DNA of 64,000 nt from Azolla caroliniana (taxonomy: Eukaryota; Plantae; Polypodiophyta). Shown piece by piece: positions 1 through 64,000 of the stretch. Both the position numbers and the translations under genes were made by a program. The first letter of the stretch is position 1. Every line of letters begins with the position of its first letter. Under the pieces are notes generated by a model. That model made no database searches, was not told where the DNA came from, and saw only the letters and a list, made by a program, of their open reading frames with translations. The stretch covers positions 19,344,001-19,408,000 of the forward strand of contig JBHGNT010000014.1 of the NCBI GenBank assembly GCA_043228905.1, given 5' to 3'.

Positions 1-720
1 AGCTAATTAGCTAGTACCATAGCTAACTAGCTACTAGGATAGCTTATTAGCTACTTTACACAACTATGTCAGTAGCTAATTAGCTACTATGATAGCTAAT
101 TAGCTAGTAGGATAGCTAATTAGCTAGTAGGATAGCTAATTAGCTAGTAGGATAGCTAATTAGTTGCCAGTAGCTAATTAGCTAGTAGGATAGCTAATTA
201 GCTATTTTACACAACTATGGTACTAGCTAATTAGCTAGTACCATAGCTAACTAGCTACTAGGATAGCTTATTAGCTACTTTACACAACTATGTCAGTAGC
301 TAATTAGCTACTATGATAGCTAATTAGCTAGTAGGATAGCTAATTAGTTGCCAGTAGCTAATTAGCTAGTAGGATAGCTAATTAGCTTTTTTACACAACT
401 ATGGTACTAGCTAATTAGCTAGTACCATAGCTAACTAGCTACTAGGATAGCTTATTAGCTACTTTACACAACTATGGCAGTAGCTAATTAGTTACTAGGA
501 TAGCTAATTAGTTACTAGGATAGCTAATTAGTTGCCAGTGGCTAATTTAGCTAGTAGGATAGCTATTTAGCTTTTTTACACAACTATGGTACTAGCTAAT
601 TAGCTAGTACCATAGCTAATTAGCTACTAGGACAGCTAATTAGCTAGTAGCTCATTAGCTGCCAGTAGCTAATTAGCTAGTAGGATAGCTAATTAGAAAA
701 GACTAAGCTTATTAGCTACA
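1..720. repeat. Array of 14-bp palindromes TAGCTAATTAGCTA (20-bp basic unit, ~184-bp higher-order unit)
   Basis: Basic unit TAGCTAATTAGCTAGTAGGA. The marker ACACAACTATG recurs at 58, 209, 282, 393, 466 and 578. A perfect 32-bp palindrome CTATGGTACTAGCTAATTAGCTAGTACCATAG occurs at 215-246, 399-430 and 584-615. Confidence 0.97.
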
Positions 721-2586
721 GTATGGTATACCTGTTTGTTTTCTCCACTCATTTGGTAGAGTTGTACTGCAATCTCCCAAACAGAATGCAGCAATTCGAC
801 AGGCATGTTGAAAACAAAGCAGATGGTATGTGTGGTTGCATGGTTGTAGGTGAACCAACAAAGACGCAGTTTTGTCCTCCACACCTAACCCGCAAGCGAT
901 GCAACGTGCTTGAACTGTCAATAAATCATTTTCTGGTTCTACTTCATTTGGTAAGGGAGCAAGAATGTTCAGGTCCAAATCCTGTATGGTCCTTACCATT
1001 TCCTCCACAAAATGTAGCTTCTTCTTAAGGCAGCTAACTACCTGTTCTTGATGAATGTATTGTTCCTTCAACGCAACAGAGAAATTTACCGATTAATTAT
1101 TCTTGTTGTTGAAAGATACACCAACTTTGCTCAGGAATCGTTAACTTACTTGAAGCTTATCCAAATTGTAATCTGCAACAGTATTTACACCTAGAAGGTC
1201 CAGGTTCATTGAAAGAACCTGGATCTCTATTTGCAGTTCTATTTTACGCTGGGGATCCAGTGGCCCCTCTAATTCAAGCTCCTGTTGCGCAACCTATTCC
1301 AGATAATGCTTGATTAGCACATTTTACCCGTTATTTATAACACAATCACATACCAGCAAAACAATAGTTACCTGAATCTTATTTCTAATTGTTGTAACAG
1401 CAGAAGTAACTTTGCTCTCCATTGCAGAAGCCATTGTGGCTTTCTCTAAATCAGTCTTAAAAAATGCCAATGTCTCACAGGCTTCATGGAAATTTTTTAG
1501 CATATAGCTAACCAATGTCTCACCTGTATCATCGACATTGGCTTTCCTTGGGTGTCGGTGTGGTGTATGCCCCCGGTCTTGCTGGGAGTCGGCAGTTGCA
1601 TCAACAGCTGCCATGCTCCAAAATCTGTCTATTTTTTGTGCCAAGGTCCCCATCTTTCGGCATCTTTTTACCGATGCCTCACCATAGACTGCCCAAGCTA
1701 CCCTATACATTTCAGGGTCTCTAGATTCCTTCGCTGTTTTGCAGTACTCATATGCAAATGCTCTAGCAAATGAAACTGACAACTCATTGTTGACTGGGAT
1801 CTCCTGATGAACTTTCTGGTGCAGTCTCATGCAGTCATCGTACAAGTCGGCTCGTACATGCTTCAGCTTGACCTTGCCTTTGACTCTAGGCACTGTATAT
1901 ACTGTCATCCAGTCTATATCACTGATCAATTTATCACTTAGGACAGCAGGGTCAACACCCTCGAGTGACAGACCATAGGTGTTGTGGAAGTCCTCCTTTG
2001 TCTCGCAAAATTTTGCGAAGTTTAGCACTCTCGTATACGGAGGAACGAGCCATCTGAAATATCATTTCAGAAATCAGAAATAGTGCAAAATCAGAATATG
2101 TGAGAATCAAAAACCCCAATCAACAACAACAAAAATGGTGCAAAATCTTTAACTTAACCTAATCAAAATCTGTAATCAGAAGTTTGAAATCAGAAACCCT
2201 AATCAAAATCTGTAATCAGAAGTTTGTAACCAGAAACCTTATTCAGAAATTCTAATCAGAAATTTATAATCAAAAACCCTAATCAGAAATTTCAATCAGA
2301 AACCCTAATAAAAAATTTCAATCACAAACCCTAATCAGAAATCCTAAGCAGAAATTTATAAACAAAAACCCTATTCAGAAATTCTAATTTGTAATCAAAA
2401 TTTGTAACCAGAAACCCTATTCAAAAATTCTAATCAGAAATTTATAATCAAAAACCCTAATCAGAAATTTCAATCACAAACCCTAATCAGAAATTTCAAT
2501 CACAAACCCTAATCACTAAAGACAGGATTAAACACAAAAAAAGTAATATAAACACACCTGTTGCTACTCCCCGATTTGCGAGACAT
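712..2586 (-). CDS. 4-exon gene (~402 aa): unknown N-terminal domain, coiled-coil, C-terminal RING-H2-like zinc finger; transposon cargo
   Basis: Exons 2586-2558, 2053-1372, 1293-1150 and 1065-712 are joined by GT-AG introns with phase preserved (1209 nt, no stop). They link track ORFs 1324..2028 and 712..1071. C-terminal CIAC-x17-CNHTYHLLC-x10-CLGDC fits a C3H2C3 pattern, with a C-x3-C last pair. Confidence 0.8.
2068..2520. repeat. Degenerate ~13-bp tandem repeat (AATCAGAAACCCT / AATCAGAAATTTC) filling intron 1 of the RING gene
   Basis: Many AATCAGAAA units. Many carry the AAACCCTA telobox/telomere-like motif. The repeat lies within intron 2054-2557. Confidence 0.9.
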
Positions 2587-3068
2587 CCTTGTATGGGACT
2601 CCAAGGACTTCGCCCTATTCGATTTTGGGGAAATATGAATCGGCACCAAAGTTCAGACAGTAGTCAAAATGAAAAAACAAATGTTTGGGGTTTCTGTAAC
2701 TGAAACATACCTGGACGATGATCGAGCGGGTTCTGTGTTGTAGCTCTCAATCTGCAATGTCGATTTTTTGCTGTTGCGGGAGCTACGTCTGCGTTCGTGC
2801 TCTGAGTACTCCATCTGCGTTCAAAATCAGACTTAGGCTAAACAGGAAATTGATGACATTGAAGTCGACCTTAGATGATGGTGATATTCCCCAAGTTCCA
2901 CTACGTCTGAAACAGAAGTTCAAATATTTGAGTTTTTTCATAAATTAGTTTTTCAAATATTTGATTTTCCCACAAGAAAGACTAGCTAAACAAATAGCTA
3001 ATTAGCTATGGCCATTTTAGTAGCTAATTAGCTATAATAGTGTTTCCACTCGCATGCTTTTACCCCTA

Positions 3069-5948
3069 GATGAAGACGGCATCCGTGCCGGTTTTTCTTC
3101 GGGAGGGTGGACACTCCACAGGGGGAACCTCCTGCTTGCTAGAGGACCCAAGATACACTCACTGTATCCGTTACATGTTACGCTCAGAGAGGGTAACCTG
3201 TTTTTGGTGGATATTCCTGTGTCATCACTATGGCACAGAAGATTAGGACACCTCAGCAAGGCCGGCATTACGCACCTATCTAGAGCCGGATACATCCCTA
3301 AACTCTCCTTCTCGGATCATCAATTCTGCGAACATTGCCAATATGGCAAACAAGCAGCCGCATCACACCCGACATCAGCACCAAGAGAAACGAGACCTCT
3401 CGATTTAGTCCACTCGGACGTCTGTGGCCCAATGCCGCATCAGTCTCTCGGCGGTGCCTCTTACTTCGTCAGTTTTATTGACGATTCGACTCGAAAGGTG
3501 TGGGCTTATCCAATTCGCACCAAAGATCGTGTCTTCTCGATCTTCTCCGATTGGCTCGCTATGGTAGAAAATCAAACTGACCGAAAACTGAAATGCTTTC
3601 GGACCGACAATGGGGGAGAGTTCAAATCAGAAGAATTCGTCAAATTCTGCCGACAACGCGGCATCCGACGTGAATTTACGGCACCACACAGTCCGGAGCA
3701 AAACGGGATTGCAGAACGCATGAATCGGACAATCCAAGAACGGATAGTTTCCATGCTCCAACACTCCGGACTGTCGGATGGCTTCTGGGCAGAGGGTCTA
3801 CTCACGGCAGTACACATAATCAATATGTCGCCAAGCAGACCTCTAGGACTTCAAATACCTCAGGAACTATGGATCGGCAGTAAGCCGAATTACGACAAGC
3901 TGAGGATCTTTGGATGCGAGGCGTACGCCCTTATTCCGAAAGATGATCGCCGAAAACTTGCACCTCGGTCCAGGAAATGCATTTTCCTTGGATATGGATC
4001 AGACGGCGAAATGGGATACCGACTCTGGGACCCCGAACGCAGACAAATCGTTCGAAGTTCGGACGTTGTGTTCAACGAGTCGGCTATGAATCCATCAGTC
4101 GAAACACCGATCGAAGTCCGAAGGGTAACATTTTCCGATGTGCCGACCCTTCAAGAAGGCCCCGCTCTTAACACACGGTCAGCTTCATGGGTAGCTGAAC
4201 CTTACACTACCGACTCGGACAACTCTGACTCGGCACAGCAGAATAATTCGCTTTCGGACCATCCGACCTCGATACCCGATACGACCAGTCCAATCATACC
4301 TCGACGATCCGAGAGACTGTCGCAACCTCCGGAGAGGTATTCTCCTGGAATTTTCTTCACCGACGCCGGCGAACCGACGTCTTACGAAGAAGCATCGACA
4401 TCTGTCGATTCAGCCACCTGGCATCTGGCGATGGAGTCGGAAATGCACTCCATTCGGGCAAACAAGACTTGGGATCTGGTCGAATTACCTCAGAATCGAC
4501 GTGCTCTTCCTTGCAAGTGGGTTTATCGACTAAAAGAGACGTCTGATTCGACCACCCCAAAGTACAAGGCCAGATTAGTTGCGAAGGGCTTCCGACAAGA
4601 ATATGGCGTCGACTTCGACGAGATTTTTTCACCAGTGGTGAAAATGACAACCCTTCGTTTTCTACTCGGCGTAGTGGCAGCTGACAACTTGGAGCTGATT
4701 CAGCTAGATGTCAAAACAGCCTTCCTCCATGGTGATCTTGAAGAGGAAATTTATATGGAGCAGCCAAAAGGCTTCGTGGCAACTGGCCAAGAACATCTAG
4801 TCTGCCGACTCAGGAAGAGTCTATACGGCCTCAAACAGGCACCGCGACAATGGTACAAGAAGTTCGACGACTTCATCCAATCGATCGGCTTCTCAAAAAG
4901 CGATGAGGACCATTGTCTTTTCACCAACACAGCTCCAGATGGATCACCCATCTTCCTCATCATTTACGTGGACGACATGCTAATTTCTGGACGCCACGCG
5001 GGCGAACTTGCCGATCTCATTCGGCAATTGCGGTTGAAGTTTGCCATGAAGGACCTCGGTCCGGCACGACACATACTTGGCATGAAGATTAGTCGGCATC
5101 GCGATAAACGACATCTTTTTTTGTCTCAGACCGACTATATCGGACGTGTCTTGGAACGCTTCAACATGCAATCAGCCAAATCTGCTTCAACCCCGCTCCC
5201 CATGAATCTTCGGCTCTCTCAGCGAGACTGCCCGACATCCGGTCCGGAGGGGGAAGATATGAAGTCGGTACCGTATGCACCGGCAGTCGGCTCCCTTATG
5301 TACCTGATGGTCGCGACACGGCCTGATATCTCTCATGCCGTAGGAGTCGTTAGCAGATTTATGCACAATCCTGGCCGATCGCATTGGAACGCAGTCAAGC
5401 ATGTGTTCAGATATCTGGCTGGCACAAAAGACCACGGCATTCTTTTCGGTCCGAACTCAACCTCAGGCGTAGTCGGTTACACCGACTCGGACTTCGTCGG
5501 CTGTATAGACAGTCGGAAATCAACAACTGGATACTGCTTCAAATTCGGCAATGGAGCAATTTCGTGGAAGTCGAAACTTCAGGAGTGCACAGCGACCTCA
5601 ACGACCGAAGCAGAATATGTAGCTGCGTCCGACGCTGCAAAAGAAGCTTTGTGGCTCGGCCGGCTGGCGCACACGTTTCGACAAGTCGACCATGACTCGG
5701 CCCCAGTTGTCTATAGCGACAGTCAAGGTGTTGTTGCCTTGTCGAAAAATCCGGTTCACCACAACGCCTCCAAACATATCGACATTCGATATCACTTCGT
5801 TCGGGACTGCGTCATTTCAGGGAAAATCGGTCTAGAGAAAATATCCACAACCGACAATGTCGCAGATGGAATGACCAAGTGTCTTTCGGCAGACCGCTTT
5901 CGGTCCCTTCGGCATCAGATGGGCGTAACGACAAACCAGTCCGGTTAG
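3069..5948 (+). CDS. pol: Copia pol polyprotein (GAG-pre-integrase, integrase, RT, RNase H), 5'-interrupted
   Basis: LWHRRLGH...CEHC zinc motif, integrase VHSDVCGP / RTDNGGEF / QNGIAERMN, RT KARLVAKG / LYGLKQAPRQW / YVDDML, RNase H YTDSD / TEAEY / KHIDIRYHF. Open frame with no stops. The first track residues (MLLPL) come from the TIR. Confidence 0.95.
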   Translation, partial: DEDGIRAGFSSGGWTLHRGNLLLARGPKIHSLYPLHVTLREGNLFLVDIPVSSLWHRRLGHLSKAGITHLSRAGYIPKLSFSDHQFCEHCQYGKQAAASHPTSAPRETRPLDLVHSDVCGPMPHQSLGGASYFVSFIDDSTRKVWAYPIRTKDRVFSIFSDWLAMVENQTDRKLKCFRTDNGGEFKSEEFVKFCRQRGIRREFTAPHSPEQNGIAERMNRTIQERIVSMLQHSGLSDGFWAEGLLTAVHIINMSPSRPLGLQIPQELWIGSKPNYDKLRIFGCEAYALIPKDDRRKLAPRSRKCIFLGYGSDGEMGYRLWDPERRQIVRSSDVVFNESAMNPSVETPIEVRRVTFSDVPTLQEGPALNTRSASWVAEPYTTDSDNSDSAQQNNSLSDHPTSIPDTTSPIIPRRSERLSQPPERYSPGIFFTDAGEPTSYEEASTSVDSATWHLAMESEMHSIRANKTWDLVELPQNRRALPCKWVYRLKETSDSTTPKYKARLVAKGFRQEYGVDFDEIFSPVVKMTTLRFLLGVVAADNLELIQLDVKTAFLHGDLEEEIYMEQPKGFVATGQEHLVCRLRKSLYGLKQAPRQWYKKFDDFIQSIGFSKSDEDHCLFTNTAPDGSPIFLIIYVDDMLISGRHAGELADLIRQLRLKFAMKDLGPARHILGMKISRHRDKRHLFLSQTDYIGRVLERFNMQSAKSASTPLPMNLRLSQRDCPTSGPEGEDMKSVPYAPAVGSLMYLMVATRPDISHAVGVVSRFMHNPGRSHWNAVKHVFRYLAGTKDHGILFGPNSTSGVVGYTDSDFVGCIDSRKSTTGYCFKFGNGAISWKSKLQECTATSTTEAEYVAASDAAKEALWLGRLAHTFRQVDHDSAPVVYSDSQGVVALSKNPVHHNASKHIDIRYHFVRDCVISGKIGLEKISTTDNVADGMTKCLSADRFRSLRHQMGVTTNQSG

Positions 5949-6141
5949 AGCCGGACACAACGCAGGATGGTTTCAGACAACCGACATCAGTTCCTTAATG
6001 ATCGGCTTCAACTCTTCCGACCCGACCAGTCCGGCCTTCTGCCTTCGGACCCTGCCGACTCGAACAAAACTGATATGTCCGAGAACCTAGGTTTATACCT
6101 GTAATCTTAGATAACCCATGTATACGCCCATTACGGGGGAG

Positions 6142-6443
6142 TGTCGAATACAAGTGTATAATGGACGTATTCACACTATCCCTTTGTATAGCTCAAGTCT
6201 GGGCCATTTGTGTAATTAGCATAAATGGTAGTTGCCCTAAGTTTGTCACTATATAAAGTGACCTAGTAACCTTTTTGTAAGGTTGGTTGTGTTATTGTTT
6301 CTATTGAATAGAAAGAGTCTTTTGTGCCTCCTCTCTCTCTCTCTCTCTATCTATGTGCACGATCTTAGAAACTCTCATACGCAGGTACTCAACCCCAATC
6401 GAATGCTACTTGATCTTCCGCATTGACGGCCTTGTCTTCAACA
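6142..6443 (+). repeat. 3' LTR of Copia A (302 bp)
   Basis: TG...CA ends after the PPT, TATATAAA at ~6250, (CT)n tract. Confidence 0.85.
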
Positions 6444-7096
6444 CGAAGGAGACCGCCTCCACGGCTTCGTTGATTTCCTCGCGCTGTCGTGAAGAATTTC
6501 GGCCATAGGCGAAAACCGGGAAACATTGTCTACATCGGCGGGCTGCAGCGTGTGTACGCACCCATGTACATTTGGTGTGAATATTGAGGGCACCTTTATG
6601 GCGCCGAAGAGTAGTGAAGTCGGGACAGACGATCCCATGAAAGTCGGAATTTCTCCCACATTGAAACGCATCCCTCTCCTTGTTCTATAAAAGGGAGGGA
6701 ACGCCCTTTGTAAAAGGCTTGCCCATTTTGCATTCGAGGGTATACCGTTAGGTTTAGAGTTAGGTTTCTTCTTCTTCTTCTTCCCCCGTCGTGTTCGTTT
6801 AGGGTTTGCTTCGGCTCATCTCCTGCGCAAGGCCCCGCTCGGCGCGACGAGCTCGTGAGCTCCCCGAGGGCGGCTTGGCAGCAGACGACTACTGTAACCT
6901 ACCTCAGTCCGGCTCGAAGCCGGGAATATATTCTTCATATATATATACATGCATATACGTTTATGTTTGTCTGTGTATATTCGCGTCGTTGTTGGCGTCG
7001 GGTGCTTACCCTCTCCTGCGTTTTCTGTACATACGGCGTGAGTCGGGTTGAGCTGCGCGCATTTGTGTGGGTGTGTGCGTGAGTCGGTGTTAAGCA

Positions 7097-8959: not shown

Positions 8960-10320
8960 CGCCTACGGAGGATTCTTCACACCGGTTCTAGAGACTTCGG
9001 CAGTCGGCAACGCGGGCGACGTAAGAACAAGATACTGACGGTGGCGGCGAGGTGACGAAGGCAAGGGCTATGGAAGGGCGGTCTACAGAGGATCCTTCAC
9101 ACCGGTTCTAGAGACTTCGGTTGTCGGCAACGCGGTCGACGTAAGACCAAGATACTGACGGTGGCCGCAAGGTGACGAAGACAATGGGCATAAGGAAGTC
9201 CGGTCCTACGGGATCCCCACACTTAACCAGAGACTCCGGCAGTTCGGCCAACGTGGCAACATGAGACCGAGAGAAAAGGTTGGTGGCGGCGGGAAACGGG
9301 ACCCGGCTACGCTAAAGGCACGAGGAGAGTCCGGGAGGGACTCAAATAAAAGACACCCGACTTTCGGCAAGCATAGAAACGGAGTCCGGCCCTATGGAAC
9401 CCTCACACTGATCCGGAGACTCCGGCAGTTCGGCCAACGTGGCAACGTGAGACCGGGGGAGAAGGATGGTGGCGGCAGGGAACGGGATCCGACCACACGA
9501 GGTAACGGAAGGAGCCGATAGGGGTGAACACGGGGAGGTGTGTCAGGCCGGAAAGGAACACCTTGGACAGAACAAGGGTCTCCCGAGTGGCCATCACGGG
9601 ACGGATCGAAGCGTGATTACGGGACGGTGTTCGGCGCGGGCGAGGCCGAACGAAGGAAGCGGAAGACGTCACAAGGGAGGTGCCGAGAACAAAGGGACAA
9701 GTGCCTAGTGGACTGCACAGGGTCGAAACCAGGACGGCAAGAGAGGCCGGAGGAGGATCCTCCACACTCGCTTCGTAGATCTCGGTAACTCCGTCGAAGT
9801 AACAAAGACTGACACAGCAAGCCGGGGTGACAAGCTGGTGGGGGCGAGGGGACGACGGCAAGCGAAAGACCCAGGACCTGTTTCAGCAGCACGATGATGG
9901 GAAGGGCCAAGCGGGCTACTACGGGGTGTTCCTCAGATGCAAAGGACACCGGTATGCGGGTGAACAGCGATGCACGATTAGGCCGGAAAGGGGCCGACGA
10001 GGAGTGCAACACGGGCAGTACCAAACAACAGACGAGGGTAGGTGGCACACGGAGGTGCGGAGCAGAAAGGCGAGCGCGGAGAAAGGGATCTTCCACACCA
10101 TTCCAGAGACCATGGCGGTTCGAGCCGACGTGGCGATGTAAGACCATGGAGAAGGAAGGTGGCGGCGGAAGGACGAAGGTGACGTGAAACACCATCGGGA
10201 CATCACGATTCGACAACGGAGGCCAAGCGGGCTGCCACGGGCATTCCTCTAGCGGAGGACATCGGGCATACGGCGGGAAGCGTGGGCGTTCATACAGCCG
10301 AACAAGGGCCAACGGGAGAA
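8960..10320 (+). repeat. Diverged ~120-bp-unit repeats in the internal region of element B
   Basis: Near-identical pair at ~8963 and ~9083 (GGATTCTTCACACCGGTTCTAGAGACTTCGG...). Related pair at ~9206 and ~9392 (AGACTCCGGCAGTTCGGCCAACGTGGCAAC). Further copies near 9755 and 10085. GGCCAAGCGGGCT occurs at ~9906 and ~10220. Confidence 0.8.
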
Positions 10321-11412: not shown

Positions 11413-14400
11413 TGTCGCGTTGTTATGCGCGTGCGTGGAGAAACGAGGCGGGACCACCGGGGTCTTGAACCGAAGAGCAGGTGATAGGAGGGCAAAGAGA
11501 AAGAGGGAGACGACCGGTTACGTATGAGCAAAGAAACACAAGGACACGGCCTGTCAACGCAGAAGACGCGAATGGACACAAAGACAGAGAGACACGAATG
11601 TTTTTATATTAACAAGTGACACAAAAACAACAGAGCACGCGAGTGGTTACAACCGAACAGGCCGCCGAACAGATGCCGATGCCTACTCGTCTGCGCACGA
11701 AAGGGGATAGGATGGAGGTGCTGCCGGAAGCACACGGGCGTTCCTCGAAGCAGCGCGAGCCTCCCGAAAACCTGCAGAGAAGATCAATAGAGAACAAACA
11801 GAGGAGAAGCGTTCGGTTACGGTCCGACAGCACTTCGTCCTCCTCAATGCGCGATCCCTTCTCCCAACGTCTCCCTCTCCTTTATAGCTTCAAGAAGGGA
11901 GCCGTCTCCCTCATTTACTTCCTACCTACCGAATCTAACTACCCAGGATATGCCTTTGTACTTAATTCCCTATTATATACATTGAAGAGCGCGCACCCGT
12001 GAAGAGCCGGTTCACGCGCGCTATGCACCGATTGCGCCAAGGGACGGTTTTCTTCACGACACCGGTATCATCCGGTCCTCTTTAAGGCCCTCTCCGACAA
12101 CCTCTCGCAGTATTCCCAAGGTATCGTCAAAGGAGACCGCCTCCACAGCTCTGTTGATTTCCTCGCTGGGCCTGAGAACTCCGCACGCCCGAAGTCCCTC
12201 TTCCACCCTTGTCTTTTCTTGGCCTATGAGGCCGACTATCGTACACCCTCTGTTGTCGGAGAAACAAAACTTCCTACTTATGGTACAAGGTTTCTTCGGT
12301 TTCGCTTCTATCGTACATTTGTGGGGGTTTCCCGGAGTGTCCGGACTGTCGCGGCCCCACGCCTTGGCAGCCCTCTCTAAAAATCCTCTCGGTTCTCGCC
12401 ATCGAGGGACTTGCGGTTTCGCTCGTGGTTCGGTCGCACCGTGAGGAACTGGACCGAATGACGCCCGTCCTAACTCTTGACCCTCGCGTAAGCCGACCCG
12501 TTGTCCAGCACCTTGGTCTCCATTCGCGCTGCCGTAATGTACGGTTCTCCCAGTATGACCGGGTGCGAGGACATCTCCTACACAAAGAAGTGATGTCCTA
12601 TCTCGACATCGCCGATCTTGACTCGCACGTTTGGGCAGGCCCCGTGTAGTTCCTCGGTGGCGCACGTTGCCGCCCGTATCTTCCACCCGTGCTTAGTGTT
12701 GATCGGCCATTTCCCCTTCTTGTAGAAGTCCATGGACATCAAGTTTATTTCCGAACCGTGGTCCACCAGCGCCACCACCAGTTCCTGAACATCTCCGATC
12801 TTCACCGGGGTTTCCGTGGTCGCTCGGGTCCAGTGTGGCCTCGAATAGTGGCTCTCCACCCACTCGTCTTCCAGTGCCATGTCCTCTATGTGCGCCGTCC
12901 GCACCTCTACCGGCCTTTCCGGTTCTACCTCCGTCAACAGCCTCTTCCTCTTCACCAAGTCCACGATGGAGTCGTGGAACTCCTTCTTGGCCATTCCGAG
13001 CACCTCCCGCAACGACAGTTCCACTTTGCTGTCGAGGATTCGTTCTTCCAGGACCTTTCGTAGGTCCGTGGTCCTTTCGATCTCCGTGCCCAAACGGTAT
13101 CCGCCCTTCTTGTGGTTATCCCGGGCACTGGACTCACCGGCCTCGGTCTGTTTCGGCCCGAATCGGGTTTCGTATCTCTGTGAGGGTCCGGCCCCTCCGG
13201 TTTTACCTACCCGTTTGTCTTCAACCAGAGCCTCGTAGTTCTGGCAAGCTGCTTCGACGAAACCCGTCTTTTCTTCGACCGGGTCACTCCACCCGGTTAC
13301 CTCCTGGACCCGCTTCTCCACGCGGTCCGCCTCGTCTCTCTTTAGTCGGGCACCGGCGAGGTCTTCCAGCACCGTCGGCCAGAACTCGGCTTTGCTCTCC
13401 CTCCAGGCCTCGCTGCCTCTGACCCGAATACCGGCTGACGCTGGGTAGTGGACGGTCTCCGCGTGCCGGGCTGCCGCCTCTTCCATCAGCCTTTTCATTC
13501 CTCCTCGCCCGTCGTTTCGGTTCAAAGCCCTCCGGGTATCGCTGGCGTGCACCTGACCTTCCCACAGGTATACTACCCGACTTCTCAAAGCCTCCGTAAA
13601 GTCCCCGCAATCTTTCCGGATGTGGCCGACCTCGTCGCACCACATGCACCTACTTCCTGTCGGAGGTCGTCGGTCACAAGCCTGATCGCCGCCTTCCCTC
13701 CGAGCCTGGGCGATCTGGAAATCCTTTACCGCTCGTGTCAACTCCTCCAAAGCTGTTCCCCCGGACGAGCCTCTGACCACGCCGGTCGAAGCCGAACCGG
13801 TTTCGAGCCACTCCCGGGTCTCTTCCCTTCGCGCCTGTGCTATCGGTTCGAGCTTCCTTGCTACGACAGGTCCCGCCCTGGTCGCCTCTGTATCAGCCCA
13901 CTCCCACCGTTTGTCAAAACGGCCGCAGACTCTTTTTACCGCGGCCCAGTCGACCGTCAGCCCGTCTTCGGTTTCCAGTAAGGAGCCCACTTGCCCCTGA
14001 TCCCGTGCGTCAACCGATTTGACAAACAGTAGGACACGACTTGTGTCCAGAACGGTCCGATCGAGCGCCGAAAGGCGCGCAAAGCGTTCCTCAAACTCTC
14101 GGAGGAGTACCGACGCATTTCTTCCTTTGTTAGGGGACTCCACCCACTCCATGAAGCCCCGCTTCGAAAGTTGAAGCGCGTCATCCAGCCCGTATTTCTC
14201 CAGGAGCCGTCCTTCGAACTCCTCCCAGGTCCGGCTCTTTGCCCGGACTTCGAGCACCTCCGCATGGATGCCCGGCATCGCCACTCGAGGGAATCCGGCA
14301 AGACGCCTCTCTTCCGGAATATCCCTCATCAACATCCCCGCCCGGTAGGATGCCAAATAACTCGTGGCATCCTTTCCACTGAACCGGCCGATCATACCGA

Positions 14401-15195
14401 TGATCGCCTCAATAGCCCTGTCAAGGGCGTCGGTGCCCTCGCGCGCGCTCACTATCCGATCCACGGCCGAAGCCATGGCCTCTGCAAGATCCGACCCCCT
14501 CATCTTCTGCTCCTCTACCGCCTGTTTCACGTTGGGTTCACCAAATATGTCGCGTTGTTACGCGCGTGCGTGGAGAAACGAGGCGGGACCACCGGGGTCT
14601 TGAACCGAAGAGCAGGTGATAGAAGGGGAAAGAGAAAGAGAGAGACGCCTGGTTGCGTATGAGCAAAGGAACACAAGGACACGGCCCGTCAACGCAGAAG
14701 ACACGAATGGACACAGAGACAGAGAGACACGAATGTTTGTATATTAACAAGTGACACCAAAACAACAGAGCACGCGAGCGGTTACAACCGAATAGGCCGG
14801 CGAACAGATGTTGATGCCTGCTCGTCTGCGAACGAAAGGGGATAGGATGGAGGTGCTGCCGGAAGCACACGGGCCTTCCTCGAAGCAGCGCAAGCCTCCC
14901 GAAAACCTGCAGAGAAGAGCGATGGAGAACGAACAGAGGAGAAGCGTTCGGTTACGGTCTGACAGCACTTCGTCCTCCTTAATGCGCGATGCCTTCTCCC
15001 TGCATCTCCCTCTCCTTTATAGCGTCAAGAAGGGAGCCGTCTCCCTCATTTACTTCCTACCTGCTGAATCTAACTACCCCGGATATACCTATGTACCTAA
15101 TTCCCTATTATATACATTAAGGGCGCGCACACATGAAGAGCCGGTTCACGCGCGCTATGCACCGATTGCGCTAAGGGACGGTTTTCTTCACGACA
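11413..15195 (-). mobile_element. Non-autonomous Gypsy-type LTR element C (gag + aspartic protease, no pol; TR-GAG-like), first unit of a tandem
   Basis: LTRs at 14548-15195 and 11413-12061 (roughly 7% different by eye). tRNA-Trp PBS at 14526-14543. The internal region is only 2.5 kb. Confidence 0.93.
12578..14530 (-). CDS. Gag-protease polyprotein of element C (truncated by a premature stop; frame continues to ~12376)
   Basis: CCHC knuckle CMWCDEVGHIRKDC and protease motif LVDHGSEINLM. After the TAG the frame continues EMSSHPVILGEPY...VQFLTVRP. First ATG at 14503. Confidence 0.88.
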   Translation of the reverse strand: MKQAVEEQKMRGSDLAEAMASAVDRIVSAREGTDALDRAIEAIIGMIGRFSGKDATSYLASYRAGMLMRDIPEERRLAGFPRVAMPGIHAEVLEVRAKSRTWEEFEGRLLEKYGLDDALQLSKRGFMEWVESPNKGRNASVLLREFEERFARLSALDRTVLDTSRVLLFVKSVDARDQGQVGSLLETEDGLTVDWAAVKRVCGRFDKRWEWADTEATRAGPVVARKLEPIAQARREETREWLETGSASTGVVRGSSGGTALEELTRAVKDFQIAQARREGGDQACDRRPPTGSRCMWCDEVGHIRKDCGDFTEALRSRVVYLWEGQVHASDTRRALNRNDGRGGMKRLMEEAAARHAETVHYPASAGIRVRGSEAWRESKAEFWPTVLEDLAGARLKRDEADRVEKRVQEVTGWSDPVEEKTGFVEAACQNYEALVEDKRVGKTGGAGPSQRYETRFGPKQTEAGESSARDNHKKGGYRLGTEIERTTDLRKVLEERILDSKVELSLREVLGMAKKEFHDSIVDLVKRKRLLTEVEPERPVEVRTAHIEDMALEDEWVESHYSRPHWTRATTETPVKIGDVQELVVALVDHGSEINLMSMDFYKKGKWPINTKHGWKIRAATCATEELHGACPNVRVKIGDVEIGHHFFV

Positions 15196-20031: not shown

Positions 20032-22950
20032 TCACATGTCCGTTGGTCCTCCCGGACCCTTACCGGCCTCATTCTCTCCGGTTCCCGGCTTGCCGTCTCT
20101 GCCATCTTGGTGGTTGTTGTCGGTCCTTTGCTCAAACGGGTTCTTAGGCATCGGTCCTCTATATGCCTTTAACCGGAATCCGTTGACCCATTTGCCCAGC
20201 ACTTCGCCGGCAAGTGTCCCCAACTAGTAGGACCCATTATACTCCTGTGTTAGCCAATATGGTCTGGTCTATCTAAACCTTAGTTTACCCGGCATCTTGC
20301 CCATCCGGGTTTGGAATACTAACACTAGTTTGCCGATTGCGAACATTTTTTCGTTACCTTTCCTGTGCCGGTCGACGAATGCTTTCCGTCGCCGTTGCTC
20401 CAATTCTAAATGTAGGATGCTAGCCAACCGTTGTTCCTCCAGCTCACACAACGTTGTCAACCTTATTGTCTCCGACTCCTTCTCGTTCAGCCGTTCTCGT
20501 AGCTGGATCCGTAAGCCAGGTACTTGAAATTCTACCGGCATGACCGCCTCGAGTCCGAACGCCAACCGGAACAGTGTTGTTCGGATGCTCGTTTTGTATG
20601 TCGTCCGGTATGCCCAAAGCGCGCTATGTAGCTTTGTGTCCCAATCCGTCCGGTTCTCGTTGACGATCTTCCGAAGGATGTTCTGGAGCGTCTTGTTTGT
20701 TGATTCCGCTAATCCGTTCGCCTGTGGATAGTAAGGTGTGCTTCGTTTGTGGACCACGGCATAGAAGGTCGTTAGGCTTTCCACTACTTGTCCGAGAAAG
20801 TGCCCCCCTTGGTCACTTATCAATTCAATGGGGCATCCATAATGGCACCAGATGTACTCATATAGAAACTTTACCGTTGACGCAGCGGTGTTATCCCGTA
20901 AAGCTTTGGCCTCCACCCATTTCGTGCAGTAATCCGTAGCAACGATAACGTACCGATTACCCGTTCTCATTGACGGTGGCTTGAACGGTCCTACAAAGTC
21001 CAGCCCCCACTTTTGGAATGGCTCGAGTGGTAGTACCGGCTGGTGTGGCATACGAGCCTGCTCCGTTGGCTGGCCCATTCTCTGGCATAGGTCACATTCT
21101 TTTGCGTACCGTACCGCATCTCTTAATGTCGTTGGCCACCATAGGCCACTTTGCCATATTTTTCTGGCTGTCGCATCTCCGGCATAGTGACCTCCGGCAA
21201 CTCCGCAGTGGGCTTCCCTCAGTATCAGTTCCTTTTCATCGCTGCGCACCGCCCGTCTCCATATGTCGTCAGCGCCCTTGTGGTACAGTGTGTCTTGCAG
21301 TAAGCAGAAATGTCGGCTTTGTACCGCCAGGCGTTTCCGTTCGTCCCGGTTCAGCTCTTCCGGAGGCAGTCCTGTGCTCAGAAACTGGTGCATATTTGTG
21401 AGCCACTTGTCTTCCTGGGCCACTGTCTCATCTGCTGCCGTCTCCGTAGTGACTCGAAACAGCTCCGCATCCGGAAACTCATCCGGTACTCCGTCACCCG
21501 TCTCTCCGGACTCCAATCGGCTTAAGTAATCCGCTACGGCATGCTGTATACCGGGTCGGTGGAATATTTCAAACTCGAACTCCTGTAACAATAAGGTCCA
21601 CCGGGCCAATTTGCCGATCAGTGACGCCTTGGACACCAGGTAAAGGAGTGCTGAATGATCTACATGGAAGGAAAACTTCCTTCCCAATAAATAGTGCCGA
21701 AACTTTGTCACACTGTAGATCATTCCTAGAGCTTCCCGTTCCGTAGTAGAGTAGTTCTGTTCTGCTTGGGATAGCTTCCAGCTGGCATAGTACACTGGCC
21801 GGTACCACTTTGGTTCCGTAAGCTGCATCAGTACGCTTCCGATTGCGATGTCGGAGGCGTCCACGAACACGTGAAATTCTTTACTCCAATCTGGAGGTTG
21901 TACTATCGGTGCCTGCGACAATAGTACCTTGAGGGCCTTATACGCCCTATCCTCAGTATCGGTCCACTGGAATGGTGTCCGATGTACGGCGGCATGCAAC
22001 GGTGTAGCCAGGTCGGCCAAGTATCGGAGTATCCGGCTGTGCCACCGGATCTGGCCTAAGAATCGGCCTAATGCCTTTGCCGTTGCTGGCGCCGGTGCTT
22101 CTAATATAGCTTTCACTTTGTCCGGGTCGACTGCAATACCTTCCTGGCTCACGATATGTCCTAATAAAGTTCCACTAGACACGCCAAATACACACTTTGC
22201 CGGATTCAAGCTTAGCCGGTACGTTCTACACTTTTCTAGACAAAGACGGAGGTGCTGAAAATGGTCCTCCTCCCGGCTATAGACGGCGAAATCGTCAAGG
22301 AAAACCTGCATAAAAGCCGGTATATATTCACCAAAGATTTCCATGATGATTCGTTGAAACGTTGCCGGTGCCGTTTTGAGTCCGAACATCATCACCACGG
22401 CCACAAACACCCCCCATTCGGTGACGAATGTCGTTTTCTCTTGGTCGTCGGGGTGCATCCGGATCTGATTATACCCGCTGAATCCGTCTAGGAAGCTATA
22501 GACCTCGTGGCCGGCGACGGCATCCAACACTCCATCTGTGAACGGAAGTGGAAACGCATCCGTTACCGTAGCCGCATTGAGTTTCCGGTAGTCCACGCAA
22601 ACTCGAATTTTTCCGTTCTTCTTCGGTACGACTACGATCGGGCTCAGCCATGTCGCTTTCTTTACCGGACGGATAAAGCCAACTCTTAGCAGTTTGTCGA
22701 TTTCTTCCTTGACCTTGGCAGCATAATTGGGATTCATCCGGTACCGTCTTTGTGCCACTGGTTTTGCGTCCTTGCTCAAGTGCACTTGATGCTGGTATAA
22801 ATGAGGGTCGAGTCCTCGCATGTCTTCGTATGACCAGGCGAATACATCGCGAAATTCCGTGAGAAGTGTTATCATTGTCGTTCTGTCTCCGGATTTCATC
22901 TCCTTGGCGATGTGCACCGGTTTTGCTTCGTCCGTGGTGCCTAAATTCAC
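20032..22950 (-). CDS. pol: Gypsy F pol (RT, RNase H, integrase); premature stop at 20269 before the GPY tail
   Basis: RVCVDYRKLN, LDGFSGYNQI, VFLDDF, FVDAS, NYSTTEREAL, HHCC (H..GGH..CDLC), WGLDFVGP, SDQG, QANGLAE. The tail VNGFRLKAY is in 20032..20223. Confidence 0.95.
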
Positions 22951-23104
22951 CTCTTCCAGTTGCGATGCTTTTACGCGCTATGAAACGGCCATTTCCCGTT
23001 CCAACGCTTCCTGCGCTTGCCGTAACTCCCGGATTGCGTCTTTATCCGGTTCTGCTTCCGCCTCTTCCGGTTGCAGTAAATACGGTGCTACGGCTTCGGC
23101 AATG

Positions 23105-53684: not shown

Positions 53685-56122
53685 TCAATGTCTGCTCTCT
53701 ACTTTCTGTTTTGCTTTCTCACTAACCTTAAGAAGTTCATGCAATCTCAAGTTCTCCTCTCTACTGATCTCCAGTGTCTTCTTGAGGTCATCAATTTCAG
53801 CAACTTGCTGTTTAGCTTCTTTCTCCATTGTGAGTAATTGTTGACGAAATGATTCCATTCTTTCATCTCTTGCTTTCAATTGTCGATCAAAAGCATTGAT
53901 CTCTTGTAAGTGCATTTGCTCCATTTTCGATCGTGCCTTCTCAAGCTCTAGCCAATCTTGCAATGCAGGACTTCTCCTATTATATGAGACTATAACACAT
54001 CATGAAAAGGAGAGGCTTTTAGTTGCAGAACACTCGGTAATAATATTAATAAATTCAAAAACATACTAGAAATTTAGCTGTTGTCTTTCATTGAGAACTT
54101 GGGATAATATTGTACATTCATGAGACATACTAAAAATTTCAAAAAAGCGGTACTAACAGTTACATGCAACATTCTACCATATTCACAAAACAATAAGGGA
54201 GTAAGATATCAATCATTACAATAAAGAGATGAACCTGAATCAATGCTCCCTTTTTGCAGCATATCCAGTGTTGCTTTTGATGCAAAGTATGCTTTTTTCC
54301 ATTTTTTAAGTTGTTTTTCGAAGTGAGTGTCTGAATTTATGCACTGAGAGAGAGCAGCATTGTCAACTGAAATGTTGTTAGCATTAGTGGCGTTATAATC
54401 ATTGCAAACCATCAAGACCCCGGTATGTGTTTCTTCACTGTGGCAATGAGTTCCTTCTAAACTACTCATATTCTTTTTATGCTTAGTCTTTCGAGAAAGT
54501 GAATTTTGTTCTAAACGAGATGCTTTTTCTTGAAATACGTCAAGCTTCTTCTGCAAGAATTTCACCTCTTCATCAAATGCTGATTGAAGCTCTTGTATCT
54601 CTTCATCATGAAGTCTTTGCAGTTCCTTCAGTTTATCAAGTCCAGGTTCTATTCTGTTCTTCGAGTTTCCATGACTGTTTGTTTCTTTCAAAACATGGCT
54701 GTTCTTAACACATAATTTCCGCCATTTCTCTTTCTCACTTTCTGCGTGTAGGAACTTAGCATTGGCAATAGCAATCTGCCTTTCCAGTTCTTGTTTTTCC
54801 TCTGTTTCTCTCTCAGATTTTTTCAGCATTTCTGTTATGATATCCTCTTTCTCCTCAGATGCATTTTGAAGTATGGAGATTTCAGACGACATTTGTGTAA
54901 CTAACTCTTCATAGTGCTTTTGTTCTTTTTTCATCTCAGTTAGGTTGTTAAGCGCAGACTCTAGGTCTTGCAATGCTTGCGTTTTCTCCTCTTCAATACA
55001 TTTTTGTGCACTTTGAAGCTCAGCCATAGCCATTTGAAGCTCATCAATCACCATTTGACTCTTACAGAGATCTGAGGAACGAACTTCTGATTCAGTCAAA
55101 AGCTTCTCTTTAACCAAAAGCTTTTCTTTGAGCTCACGTAGTTCAGATTCAACCATAACCAGTTTTCCTTTAAGAGCATTTTTCTCCTCTTGCTCTGCCT
55201 TGAGTTCCTCCATGCTAGCCATAACCACAAATTCTTGCTCCCGAAATCGTTCTTTTAGTTCAATAAGGAATCCTTCTTTGCGATCACATTCTTCACATTC
55301 AGATTCTAATTGTATATTTCTCATTCGTTGAGATGTTTGTTTTAGATATTGCTGATCCATGAAAGACCTTTGCAATTCTTCCCAAAGGCGCCTCTGATCA
55401 GAAATAAGTTTTCTTTTCTCTGCTTTCCAAGCATATTCTCTACTAGCAAAGATGGAAACAACTTTCTCGTTTGCTCTTCCTTCTTCAGCTCTTCTTCTCC
55501 TGAGACTAAGAACCTCATCCTGCAATTGCTTAATAATATGTTGTAAAAGCAGTGTTTCTTCCTCACCTATTTTTGATGATGTAAAACATTCTTTCTTGTG
55601 ATCCATGTTTTCTTCTCCAGAATTATGGAGTTCCAATTCTGAAGTTGATAGATACTTGTCTTCTCTTAAGCAGATGGCTTTGTCTTGACCATATGCTATC
55701 TTTAATGGTGTTTTGTTGTGATCTACATCCTCTCCTATAGAATTGTGAAGTTTTACTTCTAAAGTTGAGGTATTCTCCTCTGTCTCTTCCAAAAATGTAG
55801 TTTGGTCTTGATCGCATACCTTCTGCCCTAGTTTTGATGATGTAACACATTCTATATTGTGATCTGCATCTTCTTTTATGCCACACTCCTTTTTCTCATC
55901 TGAAAATGTGGGTTTGTCATATACCTCCTGACTTATCATTGATGATCCAATACATTCTTTGCTGTGATGTATATCTTCTTCTACAGAGTTCTGGAGATCT
56001 ATTGTTGAGATTGAGCTATTCTTCTTGCCCTCTTCAATAAATATACCTTTACGTTGGCTATATGGCTCTTGTGGATTCATGCTTGTAAAATTTGTTTCTT
56101 TTGAGAACAGAATATCACACAC
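53685..56122 (-). CDS. Long coiled-coil protein, similar to Arabidopsis At5g53020/At3g45900 family (annotated 'RNase P subunit P38-related')
   Basis: Exon to 54235 (CAG|GTTCAT), intron, then exon 53989-53685 in phase. Recalled family motifs RRRR.E..RANEKVV.IFAS.E..W..E...L and EQ.H..E..AF..Q....DE..E.FR..LL.ME. First in-frame ATG at 56080. A further donor (AAG|GTTAGT ~53727) is possible. Confidence 0.75.
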
Positions 56123-57289
56123 TTTCTGTTAATCTGGAGTTGATTTACATCCTGTAATATCTGGAACAAACAATGACATATCTCTGCTATTCTTTCTGCT
56201 AAGAATTTATGGACGATAGAAAAAAGATAGCAAATTGTCTTCTTTGTGGTGTTGAAGTTGACTTAACTCCTGCTTGATCTTCAAACGAGCAGGATTGGCA
56301 GATCTCTGCCATTTCTACTTCCTAGAATAAATGCCATCTATGACAATTTCCTTCAATTCAGATTGGAAATTTGACCAAATTGAAGCAACAAAAAAACATT
56401 ACATAGAACTCTGAAATTTAAAGAATCTACAGCAGCTTCTCTTTTTGTGTTTACTGAATGTTCATATATGTTCTGTTCAATCTGGGGGTTGAATTATCTC
56501 TTGTCTTCTTATAGCTGGACCAATCAATATTGATAGATCTCTGATATTTTTTTCTTTGATGGAAATTATGACAGTGACCAACTTTCAGAATCAATCGTAG
56601 ATTTTCAAGGTTTGATGAAGGCAAAGCTTCAACGAATATTGTATATATTTTCTGATGCTTTTCTGCAGAATTTGTGAAGTCTATAGAGAGATTTATGTGT
56701 CTGCCTCTCAATTTCTCCTGCCACATTAGAAACGAACAAACAACAAATTTGAAATGAACAACAGAAAAATAAAGTTGATGCAAATGAACAACACAAGAGA
56801 CAAAAAAGACTTCTTGAAACAAAACAAGCAAATATATAAAAACACCAAGACAGACAACAAATTCAAAACAAACAACCAACAACAATGTCAAGAAAGCAAT
56901 AGTTTGCTATTTCTTCTTTACACACCTCAACAAGTAATGACCTGCAATTTTAGAACTGGGTGTAATTTTGCGAAAATTCAAAGAAGTAAGAAAACTGTAA
57001 ATGCCATTTCTTCGAATGGTGCAGAAACTATGGAGTTCTAGAGAAAACAAACGTACATGAAAACAATGTTTGTTTATTCTTTCTGAAATATTCAAAAACT
57101 ATGGCGTTGGTGTTCTAGACGGAACAAATAGAAAAGGTTTTCGTATGATGTCTTGCAGAAATACTTTTAAGCATTCGAAGCTCTCTCTCTGTCTCTCCCT
57201 GTGTGTCTGTTTGCTTCTGTGTGTGTGTGTGCCTGTGTGTGAGAGAGAGAGATACAGAAAGACAGACAGAGATAGAGAATTCAGTGGCG

Positions 57290-61655: not shown

Positions 61656-64000
61656 TTAACTCTCCCATGACCGAACATTGGCATAAGTATTCGACATGAA
61701 AATATATGCGGAAACTTGTTGAGGATCGACCATGACAGAATGCCGAAATGCCCACTCGGCAAATGAGATGTTGCCATGTGTACAGCAAGCACCTAACAAG
61801 CACAACAACATTGATGTGTCTGCTTCCATCGGCATCTTTTCAAGCATATTCTCCAGCCTTTTGAAATCTCCAACTCTACCGAGGAGATCTACCATAGCTC
61901 CATAATGTTTTGAGTTCGGAATAATATCATAGTTTCGGCCCATAGATTCAAATAGCACAATTGCTCGATCAATAAGCCCCTCATGGTTGCAGATAGAAAG
62001 AATTGTAGTCAATGTCACTTCATCTGGCTCCATACCGGCGATTTGAAGTCTCTCAAACATATGCATACTTTCTACTACACTTCCTTCTCCTACATAACCA
62101 TCGATGAATACATTCCACAACACAATATCTGCGATGAAGGGAAGTTCTTCAAAACAAGCTTGCATTTCAACAATACCTCTGCAATTTCCATATGCATAAA
62201 TTAAAGTAGTTGCTAAGGAAGGGATTTCCTTATAACAAGAAGAGGCAATACCAAAATGAATCTCCTTACATATGTCCAAGTTTCCTGTCAAGCTACAAGC
62301 TTGTAGAATACTAGTAAGGGTCAAATCATCGAAAATGGCATGTTGTTTTTGTGCTTTTCTTAAGAGTGTTAATGCCTCTTCTGGTTGGCCATCTCTAATA
62401 TACGCAGAAAGGATAGTGTTCCATGGTACAATACTTGAGTTAGAGAAGATATCAAATAAATTCTTTGTTTCAAACATGCCCCCACATTTTGCATACATAT
62501 TCATAACACTACTTCCAACAACTACATCTGACATGAACCCCTTCCTCTCGGCATCTATATGCAAAGCTTTTCCTATTTCTAAAGAAACTAACATTTCCTC
62601 TTTTATTTGCTGGCATAATAGATCTTCTTTCAAAGTAAGAATAGCACATGCTTGTAAAATTATAACAAATGTTAGCTCAGTTGGAGCAATCCCATTCTCT
62701 TGCATCTCTCGAAACAATCGTAAAGCCATCTCTCCTTGCTGTTTATTAACATATGAAGAGAGCATTGCATTATATGAGACTACATCGGGTTGACATAATG
62801 CTGAAAAAACCATCTCTGCCTCAGCAATAGCACCACACTTTCCATACATACCGATGATTGTATTCACAACAAAGATATTAGTAGAAGTAAAACCCTTTCT
62901 CCTTGCATATGCATGCAGTGCCTTCCCTATCTCTGAATCATTTTTTTGTTCTGAATTTGACTTTACATCAAAATCTTCTTTCCCCACAAGATTGGCAGAA
63001 GCTTGTAGTGCATATACAAGAGTATGTGCATCTGTGATCACACCTTCTTCTTGCATTTGTCTATATAACAGTAAAGCTTTGCCTTCGTGACCGTGCATGA
63101 CATATGCTGAGAGCATTTTATTCCATGCTACTGAATCTTGTCGAGATAATGAAAGAAACAATACCTCTGATTCAACTATGGCTCCACAAGTGCTATAAAT
63201 ACCAACAAGTGTGTTGTTAATGATTAGATCCACGCAAAAACCCATGATACAAACATTTGTGTGTATTGCTTGGACTATATCCACACAAATCATCTCAATC
63301 GAATATTCATGAGAGATAGCTCCTGTCTCTTCAAACACAATAAGTCCACATGCTTTAAGGGTGAAGACTAGGGTAAGAATGTCTATAGCAAGACCATCTC
63401 GTTCCATCATCACATACAACTTTAATGCTTTGTTTCCTTCTCCATTCGCAACGTATGCTGACAGCATAGCATTCCATGAAAACACGTCCCTATGGGGCAA
63501 TTCATCAAACAAAACCTCTGCTTCCTGAACTGCCCCTATTTTTCCATACATGCTTATAAGTGTGTTAATGACCAATATACTCGTTTGAAATCCGTGCTTG
63601 GCGAGACAAAAATGCAATGCTTTTCCAATTTCTAAAGCTATATTCTTGGTTTCTTGTTCTATACTAACAAGATTTTCTTCATTCATTAGGTTACCACATG
63701 CTTGAAGGGTCATCAAAAAGGTAACCTCATTTGGATTTACATTGAGATCATACATTTGCGCATACAACTGCAAAACCTTCTCAATATGTTGATTTTCGAG
63801 GTAGGCTGACATCATTGCATTCCATGAGACAATATCTCTCCTCGGCATCTCGCAAAACACACTTTCGGCCTCGACAACAAATCCACATTTCCCATACATA
63901 CTCACGAGAGCGCATCCAACAAACATATCATATGCACAGAATCCTTTCATACAAGCAAAAGCATGAAATATCTTTCCATTCTCTACATCTTGATTTATGC
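61656..64000 (-). CDS. PLS-class pentatricopeptide repeat protein with E domain, no DYW (5' end beyond window)
   Basis: Repeating P-L-S triplets (ALVSMYGKCG..EAE.VF / DIVSWNAM.SAY / P.EVTF...LQAC). C-terminal HYGAMVDLLGRVG...MPMEAD...LLGAC..HGN...AY..MSN.YA. Intronless; the frame is open to the window edge. Confidence 0.96.
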   Translation of the reverse strand, partial: INQDVENGKIFHAFACMKGFCAYDMFVGCALVSMYGKCGFVVEAESVFCEMPRRDIVSWNAMMSAYLENQHIEKVLQLYAQMYDLNVNPNEVTFLMTLQACGNLMNEENLVSIEQETKNIALEIGKALHFCLAKHGFQTSILVINTLISMYGKIGAVQEAEVLFDELPHRDVFSWNAMLSAYVANGEGNKALKLYVMMERDGLAIDILTLVFTLKACGLIVFEETGAISHEYSIEMICVDIVQAIHTNVCIMGFCVDLIINNTLVGIYSTCGAIVESEVLFLSLSRQDSVAWNKMLSAYVMHGHEGKALLLYRQMQEEGVITDAHTLVYALQASANLVGKEDFDVKSNSEQKNDSEIGKALHAYARRKGFTSTNIFVVNTIIGMYGKCGAIAEAEMVFSALCQPDVVSYNAMLSSYVNKQQGEMALRLFREMQENGIAPTELTFVIILQACAILTLKEDLLCQQIKEEMLVSLEIGKALHIDAERKGFMSDVVVGSSVMNMYAKCGGMFETKNLFDIFSNSSIVPWNTILSAYIRDGQPEEALTLLRKAQKQHAIFDDLTLTSILQACSLTGNLDICKEIHFGIASSCYKEIPSLATTLIYAYGNCRGIVEMQACFEELPFIADIVLWNVFIDGYVGEGSVVESMHMFERLQIAGMEPDEVTLTTILSICNHEGLIDRAIVLFESMGRNYDIIPNSKHYGAMVDLLGRVGDFKRLENMLEKMPMEADTSMLLCLLGACCTHGNISFAEWAFRHSVMVDPQQVSAYIFMSNTYANVRSWES

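Follow-up and report, generated by a model that had tools for sequence, protein, structure and literature searches.

A Sola2-type transposon of Azolla caroliniana with a conserved RING-like accessory gene and family-specific motif arrays

Organization of the locus

The window analysed here, a 64,000-nucleotide (nt) stretch of the Azolla caroliniana genome, opens with the right-hand part of a DNA transposon that is inserted in a Copia retrotransposon (Table 1). By fetching the left-neighbour sequence (L021), we recovered the complete Sola2 element, which spans 11,240 bp from L021:1727 to window position 3065 and carries two genes arranged tail-to-tail on opposite strands, a transposase gene and an accessory gene. 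The latter codes for an N-terminal domain (hereafter referred to as the N-domain), a coiled-coil region, a RING-H2-like finger and, most likely, an FCP1-like domain.

A preliminary description of the window had recognized that the transposon end cuts a Copia pol ORF, and the right TIR indeed interrupts that frame, which still runs for 974 amino acids from stop to stop (3024–5948). The open frame and the near-identical LTRs agree with the recent insertion that had been proposed, and the gag/protease half of the Copia element, sought on the other side of the insertion, lies at L021:574–1722. Elsewhere in the window, long minus-strand ORFs occupy positions 12578–14557, 20269–22977, 54209–56128 and 61656–63998, and tandem repeats of 120 bp and 102 bp are located at 8963 and 58258, respectively.

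Table 1. Features of the locus; positions refer to the window unless prefixed with L021.
Feature	Position	Strand	Remarks
Right-hand 3.07 kb of the Sola2 element	1..3065		Remainder left of the window (left end L021:1727)
Palindrome array, probable intron 4 (1,306 bp)	1..731, on to L021:9327	-
Probable exon 5 (start) and FCP1-like exon	L021:9326; L021:8541-7487		Placed by conserved acceptors
Exon 4, RING-H2-like finger	732..1065	-	Cys 903 to Cys 769; phase-1 GT donor at 731
Exon 3, coiled-coil region	1150..1293	-
Intron 2	1294..1371	-	Spliced in contig X1
Exon 2, ~135-aa N-domain (about 1610-2030) and start of coiled coil	1372..2053	-	dN/dS 0.18
Intron 1, with 13-bp tandem repeat at 2158-2515	2054..2557	-	X1 joins exon 2 to exon 1
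Exon 1, ATG at 2586	2558..2586	-	Loose end of X1 agrees with 2561-2590 in 27/30 positions (by eye)
Two subterminal copies of the 14-bp palindrome	2995..3034		Starts at 2995 and 3021, by the TIR
Right TIR, 25 bp, starts GGG	3041..3065	-	1 mismatch to left TIR
Target-site duplication CTAG, 4 bp	3066..3069	+	Partner copy L021:1723-1726
Host Copia pol, 3' of the insertion	3070..5948	+	Open frame 3024-5948; RVT_2, rve, SH3
Host Copia 3' LTR	6140..6443	+	301/304 identical to 5' LTR

Identity and age of the element

Extension to the left recovered the matching TIR that had been predicted. The right end had been placed at 3068 and read as Ac-like, with an 8-bp target-site duplication (TSD; GATGAAGA) and a hAT transposase expected upstream. 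hAT/Ac elements generate 8-bp TSDs, and the termini of Sola2 elements read 5'-GRG..CYC-3'. The actual end lies at 3065 and reads GGG..CCC rather than TAGGG, a string that the flank completes by chance in the window copy alone. Full copies start with GGG, end with CCC and are flanked by a 4-bp TSD in 9/9 cases (10 copies fetched, 9 with both ends), and at the insertion site CTAG stands unduplicated in 7/7 uninterrupted Copia copies. No hAT Pfam family was found at E ≤ 1 in either transposase exon. Given these ends and TSDs, together with the Sola2 motifs of the transposase, membership in Ac/hAT is practically untenable.

The transposase is an intact protein of 863 residues encoded on the plus strand by two exons (L021:3069–3818 and 5021–6862), the first of which carries an HTH (Pfam HTH_11, E 7e-5). 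Its motifs DFAENY, SDGAASQFK and HGKGEHDG and an upstream cysteine cluster match part 1 of 2 of a Sola2 alignment (PMC3627910, Additional file 10); the match, to DF(A/S)ENY, SDG..Q(F/Y)K and HGK..DG, was made by eye. Three aspartates of the transposase are invariant in 36 relatives. Named relatives occur in Ceratodon, Calypogeia, Cryptomeria, Taxus and Adiantum, and the animal proteins are more distant. Judged from its sequence, the transposase belongs to Sola2.

Sola2 TSDs are 4 bp long (PMC3627910, in part), and Sola elements are known from fern genomes (PMC6786969 and PMC6890710, both in part). The present element shares its transposase motifs, 4-bp TSD and short TIRs with the described ones, among which some Sola2 elements of amoebozoans carry a Fanzor1 passenger protein (PMC3627910 and PMC4455052, both in part). 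Here, by contrast, the passenger is an N-domain/coiled-coil/RING/FCP1-like protein, arrays fill the introns of both genes, and the TSD lacks an AT preference: TSD sequences varied among the nine full copies, with no target preference at these 9 sites.

The terminal 43 bp have 242 exact matches in the genome (control, 0). Full copies are 99.5–99.9% identical to the window copy over the coding parts. They range from 10.8 to 12.4 kb with widely varying array length, and both genes are stop-free in 3/9 of them, including the window copy. The family (hereafter family 1) is young, high-copy and recently spread, and the window copy is intact. A tandem repeat of 83 bp is found at L021:2050–2800, upstream of the transposase.

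Structure and splicing of the accessory gene

The preliminary description had placed a four-exon, stop-free gene of 402 amino acids about 480 bp inside the terminus. Its model (2586–2558, 2053–1372, 1293–1150 and 1065–714, with GT..AG introns) reproduces exactly, with the ATG 479 bp inside the end. Of the three junctions proposed, two are spliced in contig X1, a presumed RNA contig from a relative about 95% identical that leaves the gene at 1250: introns 1 and 2 are absent from it. The third, intron 3, has a conserved GT/AG pair and diverges faster in older copies. Of the other sets compared, X3 and X4 contributed no aligned contigs, X2 behaves as DNA, and a second round of alignment brought no evidence of splicing. 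The 13-bp tandem repeat of intron 1 (2158–2515) holds telomere-like AAACCCTA units and is largely missing from the older subfamily.

The proposed end of the gene at 714 is disfavoured, because all older copies in which the site survives (8/8) conserve the GT donor at 731, whereas the read-through peptide varies in length and frame. Phase-1 acceptors are conserved at L021:9327 and 8542. Comparison of the copies thus indicates that the palindrome array most likely represents intron 4 rather than a tail, and that the gene probably runs on to a linker and the FCP1-like domain. The presence of the same palindrome in the array and by the TIR was correctly recognized in the preliminary description; the RING-H2-like finger, described there as C-terminal, probably is not.

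Open reading models of 574, 747 and 776 amino acids differ in the last exon used. The long form of exon 5 has a dN/dS of 0.84, yet it ends in an acidic-PL stretch and a basic TRS tail that recur in three other families. This acidic x-PL motif followed by a basic TRS tail closes the ORF in all four (L021:8791–8970, L054:7110–7250, L170:8567–8710 and L056:4145–4330) and may mark an alternative last exon with a nuclear localization signal. DNA contigs (X2) show many variants over this piece (L021:8791–8970). In the linker before the NIF domain, individual copies of the young family hold between 1 and 5 units of a 39-bp in-frame repeat (L021:8278–8420).

Domains of the accessory protein

The N-domain is predicted by AlphaFold to be mostly helical (pLDDT 94.5). 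It has no covering Pfam family in 66 members, and fold searches returned 0 matches at E ≤ 0.001 in the PDB and viral Foldseek sets and a best Z of 2.6 in VIA; the best Atlas score, 0.85, was uninformative. Such a lack of matches is no proof of a new fold. The domain is mildly basic (22 K+R, 19 D+E). A reading as a plant mobile domain (PMD) was rejected, with no PMD Pfam hit in the 66 N-domain proteins. Exon 2 matches 138 cluster representatives, and 8 of the 10 looked up are unnamed Adiantum proteins. A RING pattern appears in only 16 of 69 long N-domain relatives and a NIF domain in 8, and in predicted Adiantum gene models a single chain comprises N-domain, RING and NIF. Four N-domain models (P0152, P0162, P0242 and P0293) include a gag, protease or pol domain of a retrotransposon; these are either nested-insertion chimeras or cases in which other elements use the domain.

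RING-H2 fingers are typically E3 ubiquitin ligase modules. The finger encoded by exon 4 has eight candidate ligands for a C3H2C3 pattern, six of them invariant in 9 relatives, and its last pair is C-x3-C; its Pfam scores fall below the cut-off (zf-rbx1, E 0.096; zf-RING_2, E 0.26).

The FCP1-like domain resembles the FCP1/SCP (NIF) HAD phosphatases, with a Pfam NIF match above the cut-off (E 4e-8) and an Atlas score of 0.93; its single-sequence fold prediction reached a pLDDT of 36, and a PDB sequence search with it gave 0 hits. The canonical motif I of FCP1/SCP is DxDx(T/V). By contrast, motif I reads ELDKV in the young copy and in 6/7 older copies aligned, with the catalytic aspartate absent, and DLNG in relatives, and the domain lacks some 26 residues behind motif I. 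Because motif I reads ELDKV, the domain is predicted to be inactive and is likely a dead phosphatase.

Linkage to the transposon and selection

In all 19 accessory-gene copies inspected with their surroundings, the gene follows the same TIR; for a 20th (L010/C19b), the right TIR is present and the sequence did not extend to the left end. The ten fetched copies of an older subfamily, about 85% identical, have this TIR before the gene.

We computed dN/dS on the differences shared between the young and the older subfamily. The ratio was 0.18 for the N-domain (P 2e-8), 0.15 for exon 3, 0.24 for the RING (P 1e-3) and 0.23 for the FCP1-like domain (P 2e-10), alongside 0.15 for transposase exon 2, and it was weaker, at 0.38–0.61, for the linker and coiled-coil parts. 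By these ratios (0.15–0.27 in the domains), purifying selection acts on the accessory gene. Copies of the young family differ little from one another and in a near-neutral way, as expected after insertion.

The accessory gene in other Sola2 families

The genome holds a second Sola2 family (125 matches), with a transposase about 46% identical, GGG ends and a 4-bp TSD in 5/6 copies; like family 1 it has the GGG..CCC termini of Sola2. The N-domain is encoded opposite to the transposase in 6/6 copies (E 3e-6 to 1e-5), and the coiled coil and RING are present. In a copy read in detail, a C3H2C3 RING exon, whose last cysteine pair is C-x2-C, leads through a phase-1 GT into an intron with an array of its own. 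A search for NIF gave no hit in this family.

We further searched a metagenome set of 80 loci, most of them short or decayed. In two fern-type contigs (L056 and L058), an FCP1-like (NIF) ORF lies tail-to-tail with a Sola2 transposase, and the L058 ORF shares 79% identity with the end of an Adiantum model, P0236, that combines N-domain, RING and NIF in one chain. No RING was found in the L066 family. Among moss-type loci, 8 loci of 6 families have an N-domain-like stretch on the opposite strand downstream of the transposase (all hits with the moss N-domain profile at iE < 1; best reversed control, 9.2); one of the 8 hits is the profile's own family and the other seven are weak (iE 6e-5 to 0.6). 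Later profile rounds were circular and were left out of the counts. The fern N-domain profile alone found nothing significant in the 80 loci. The fern and moss profiles align with each other at 90–97% probability, and the suggested fern–moss link rests on this profile–profile alignment.

Motif arrays

The 14-mer TAGCTAATTAGCTA occurs 16 times in positions 1–3065 of the window and 0 times in the rest (0.0005 expected). The transposase intron contains the same palindrome array as the accessory gene. The two introns hold 70 of the 78 motifs of family 1; another 5 are found between the two genes, 3 at the element ends and 0 in coding exons.

A table of motif counts by element is nearly diagonal for seven elements, each with a motif of its own, with cross-counts only between family 1 and L056. 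In at least six families, arrays built from different motifs recur at matching intron positions. The intron motif of L054 and L058 additionally adjoins the left TIR, such that three families, including family 1, have the motif within or next to the TIR. A small hairpin (ATGTC..GACA) lies between motif copies just interior to the left TIR of these families (L021:1756–1785, L054:1820–1835 and L058:70–85). Arrays are weak or absent at many moss-type loci. Over positions 1–700, the array has 0 CG, 18 CHG and 224 CHH sites, compared with 32 CG and 68 CHG sites in exon 2, which is of similar length; the array thus offers almost no symmetric methylation sites.

Discussion

Very probably, this Sola2 element contains a dedicated, selected accessory gene. 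The preliminary description had proposed that the gene moved as such a part rather than as a random captured fragment, and the TIR linkage, the purifying selection and the recurrence in a second family bear it out.

Some plant DNA transposons encode accessory anti-silencing proteins that act on motif arrays of their own, as in VANDAL/VANC. We favour the accessory protein as the reader of the motif, because the layout of the element parallels VANDAL/VANC: a transposon-encoded accessory gene is accompanied by family-specific short motifs in tandem arrays at similar places (PMC5735166 and PMC10398659, both in part). VANC motifs are arranged as tandem repeats specific to each family and occupy introns as well as intergenic and terminal regions (PMC5735166, in part), and the family-specific arrays in the introns of Sola2 lend circumstantial support to a protein–array link. 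A VANC-like anti-silencing role is proposed tentatively, by analogy and with somewhat less than even confidence. The N-domain would read the family's own motif, the coiled coil would dimerize the protein, and the RING could bring an E2 that ubiquitinates a nearby silencing factor or histone, with the FCP1-like domain as a possible phosphopeptide-binding scaffold; positioned on the arrays, the protein might shield the element from host silencing. Unlike the VANC system, which belongs to Mutator-like elements, this one would combine a RING and a pseudophosphatase with an N-domain that has no Pfam match, in a Sola2 element, with putative motif binding and demethylation (PMC5735166 and PMC10398659, both in part).

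Other systems offer partial parallels. In Spm/CACTA TnpA and MuDR, as here, the motif adjoins the termini and the element encodes a regulator (PMC10398659 and bioRxiv 10.64898/2026.08.24.746577, both in part); TnpA is transposase-derived (PMC10398659, in part), whereas our accessory protein has no similarity to transposase. The plant mobile domain proteins MAIN and MAIL1 form protein–DNA motif modules that oppose silencing, as is proposed here (bioRxiv 10.1101/2024.09.27.615353, in part), but these are host genes, and the N-domain proteins lack the PMD.

Alternatively, the motif could be read by the transposase, whose HTH is an equally well-placed candidate, given that three families have the motif next to the TIR. 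Its binding would serve end recognition and self-activation, and the accessory protein would be a selected partner acting through proteins, for example by degrading a host defence factor or by controlling the transposase level. AtMu1 transposases are reported to activate their own copies (bioRxiv 10.64898/2026.08.24.746577, in part), and Pfam, fold and Atlas searches and the charge of the N-domain gave no sign of DNA binding. However, the motifs in the two introns lie 2–3 kb from the ends, one of these introns is inside the accessory gene, and the same intron position in the second family holds a different array. We regard this alternative as a serious one, at appreciably less than an even chance.

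In a further, improbable reading, the arrays arose by slippage from a subterminal binding site and are tolerated in introns, and the accessory protein is a transposition cofactor for targeting or transpososome assembly, unrelated to silencing. The wide variation in array length, the many moss-type loci with weak or no arrays and an unrelated recent tandem repeat in intron 1 fit such an origin, whereas neutral slippage does not predict that six or more families would place different motifs at matching intron positions, and the TSDs show no target preference.

A neutrally decaying fragment of a captured host gene (Pack-type cargo) is very improbable and largely refuted: RING and NIF are common host domains, the few differences within the young family are near neutral and the genome searches for a host parent covered the best 150 of 550–790 candidates, but the low dN/dS between subfamilies, the same gene beside a transposase of about 46% identity and the lack of a closer non-TE hit for distant queries among those best 150 all speak against it.

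In the literature searched, with Repbase and the original Sola paper outside it, we found no account of an accessory gene or arrays in Sola, and the accessory gene of Sola2 is apparently undescribed so far. Transposon-encoded counter-silencing is documented for few plant elements. The gene is conserved across Sola2 families, with a well-folded domain unmatched in Pfam and solved structures and a candidate target motif per family, and a single genome with two active families that differ in motif provides a built-in specificity swap. A broader reading, which we consider rather unlikely, is that land-plant Sola2 elements have carried an anti-silencing system since before the moss/fern split, in which a DNA-reading domain of new fold and a ubiquitin-ligase finger co-evolve with intronic family-specific arrays, an independent VANC-like invention acting by targeted ubiquitination. 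If the proposed anti-silencing role holds, it would represent a ubiquitin-based route of transposon self-protection, would help to explain the abundance of Sola in some ferns and could yield a compact chromatin tool with sequence specificity.

The present case also shows that a large number of fern gene models labelled 'hypothetical' are in fact genes of transposons. One fish Sola2-like transposase (P0114) bears the annotation sentrin-specific protease, a hint that domains of the ubiquitin/SUMO pathway are carried by Sola2 elements repeatedly.
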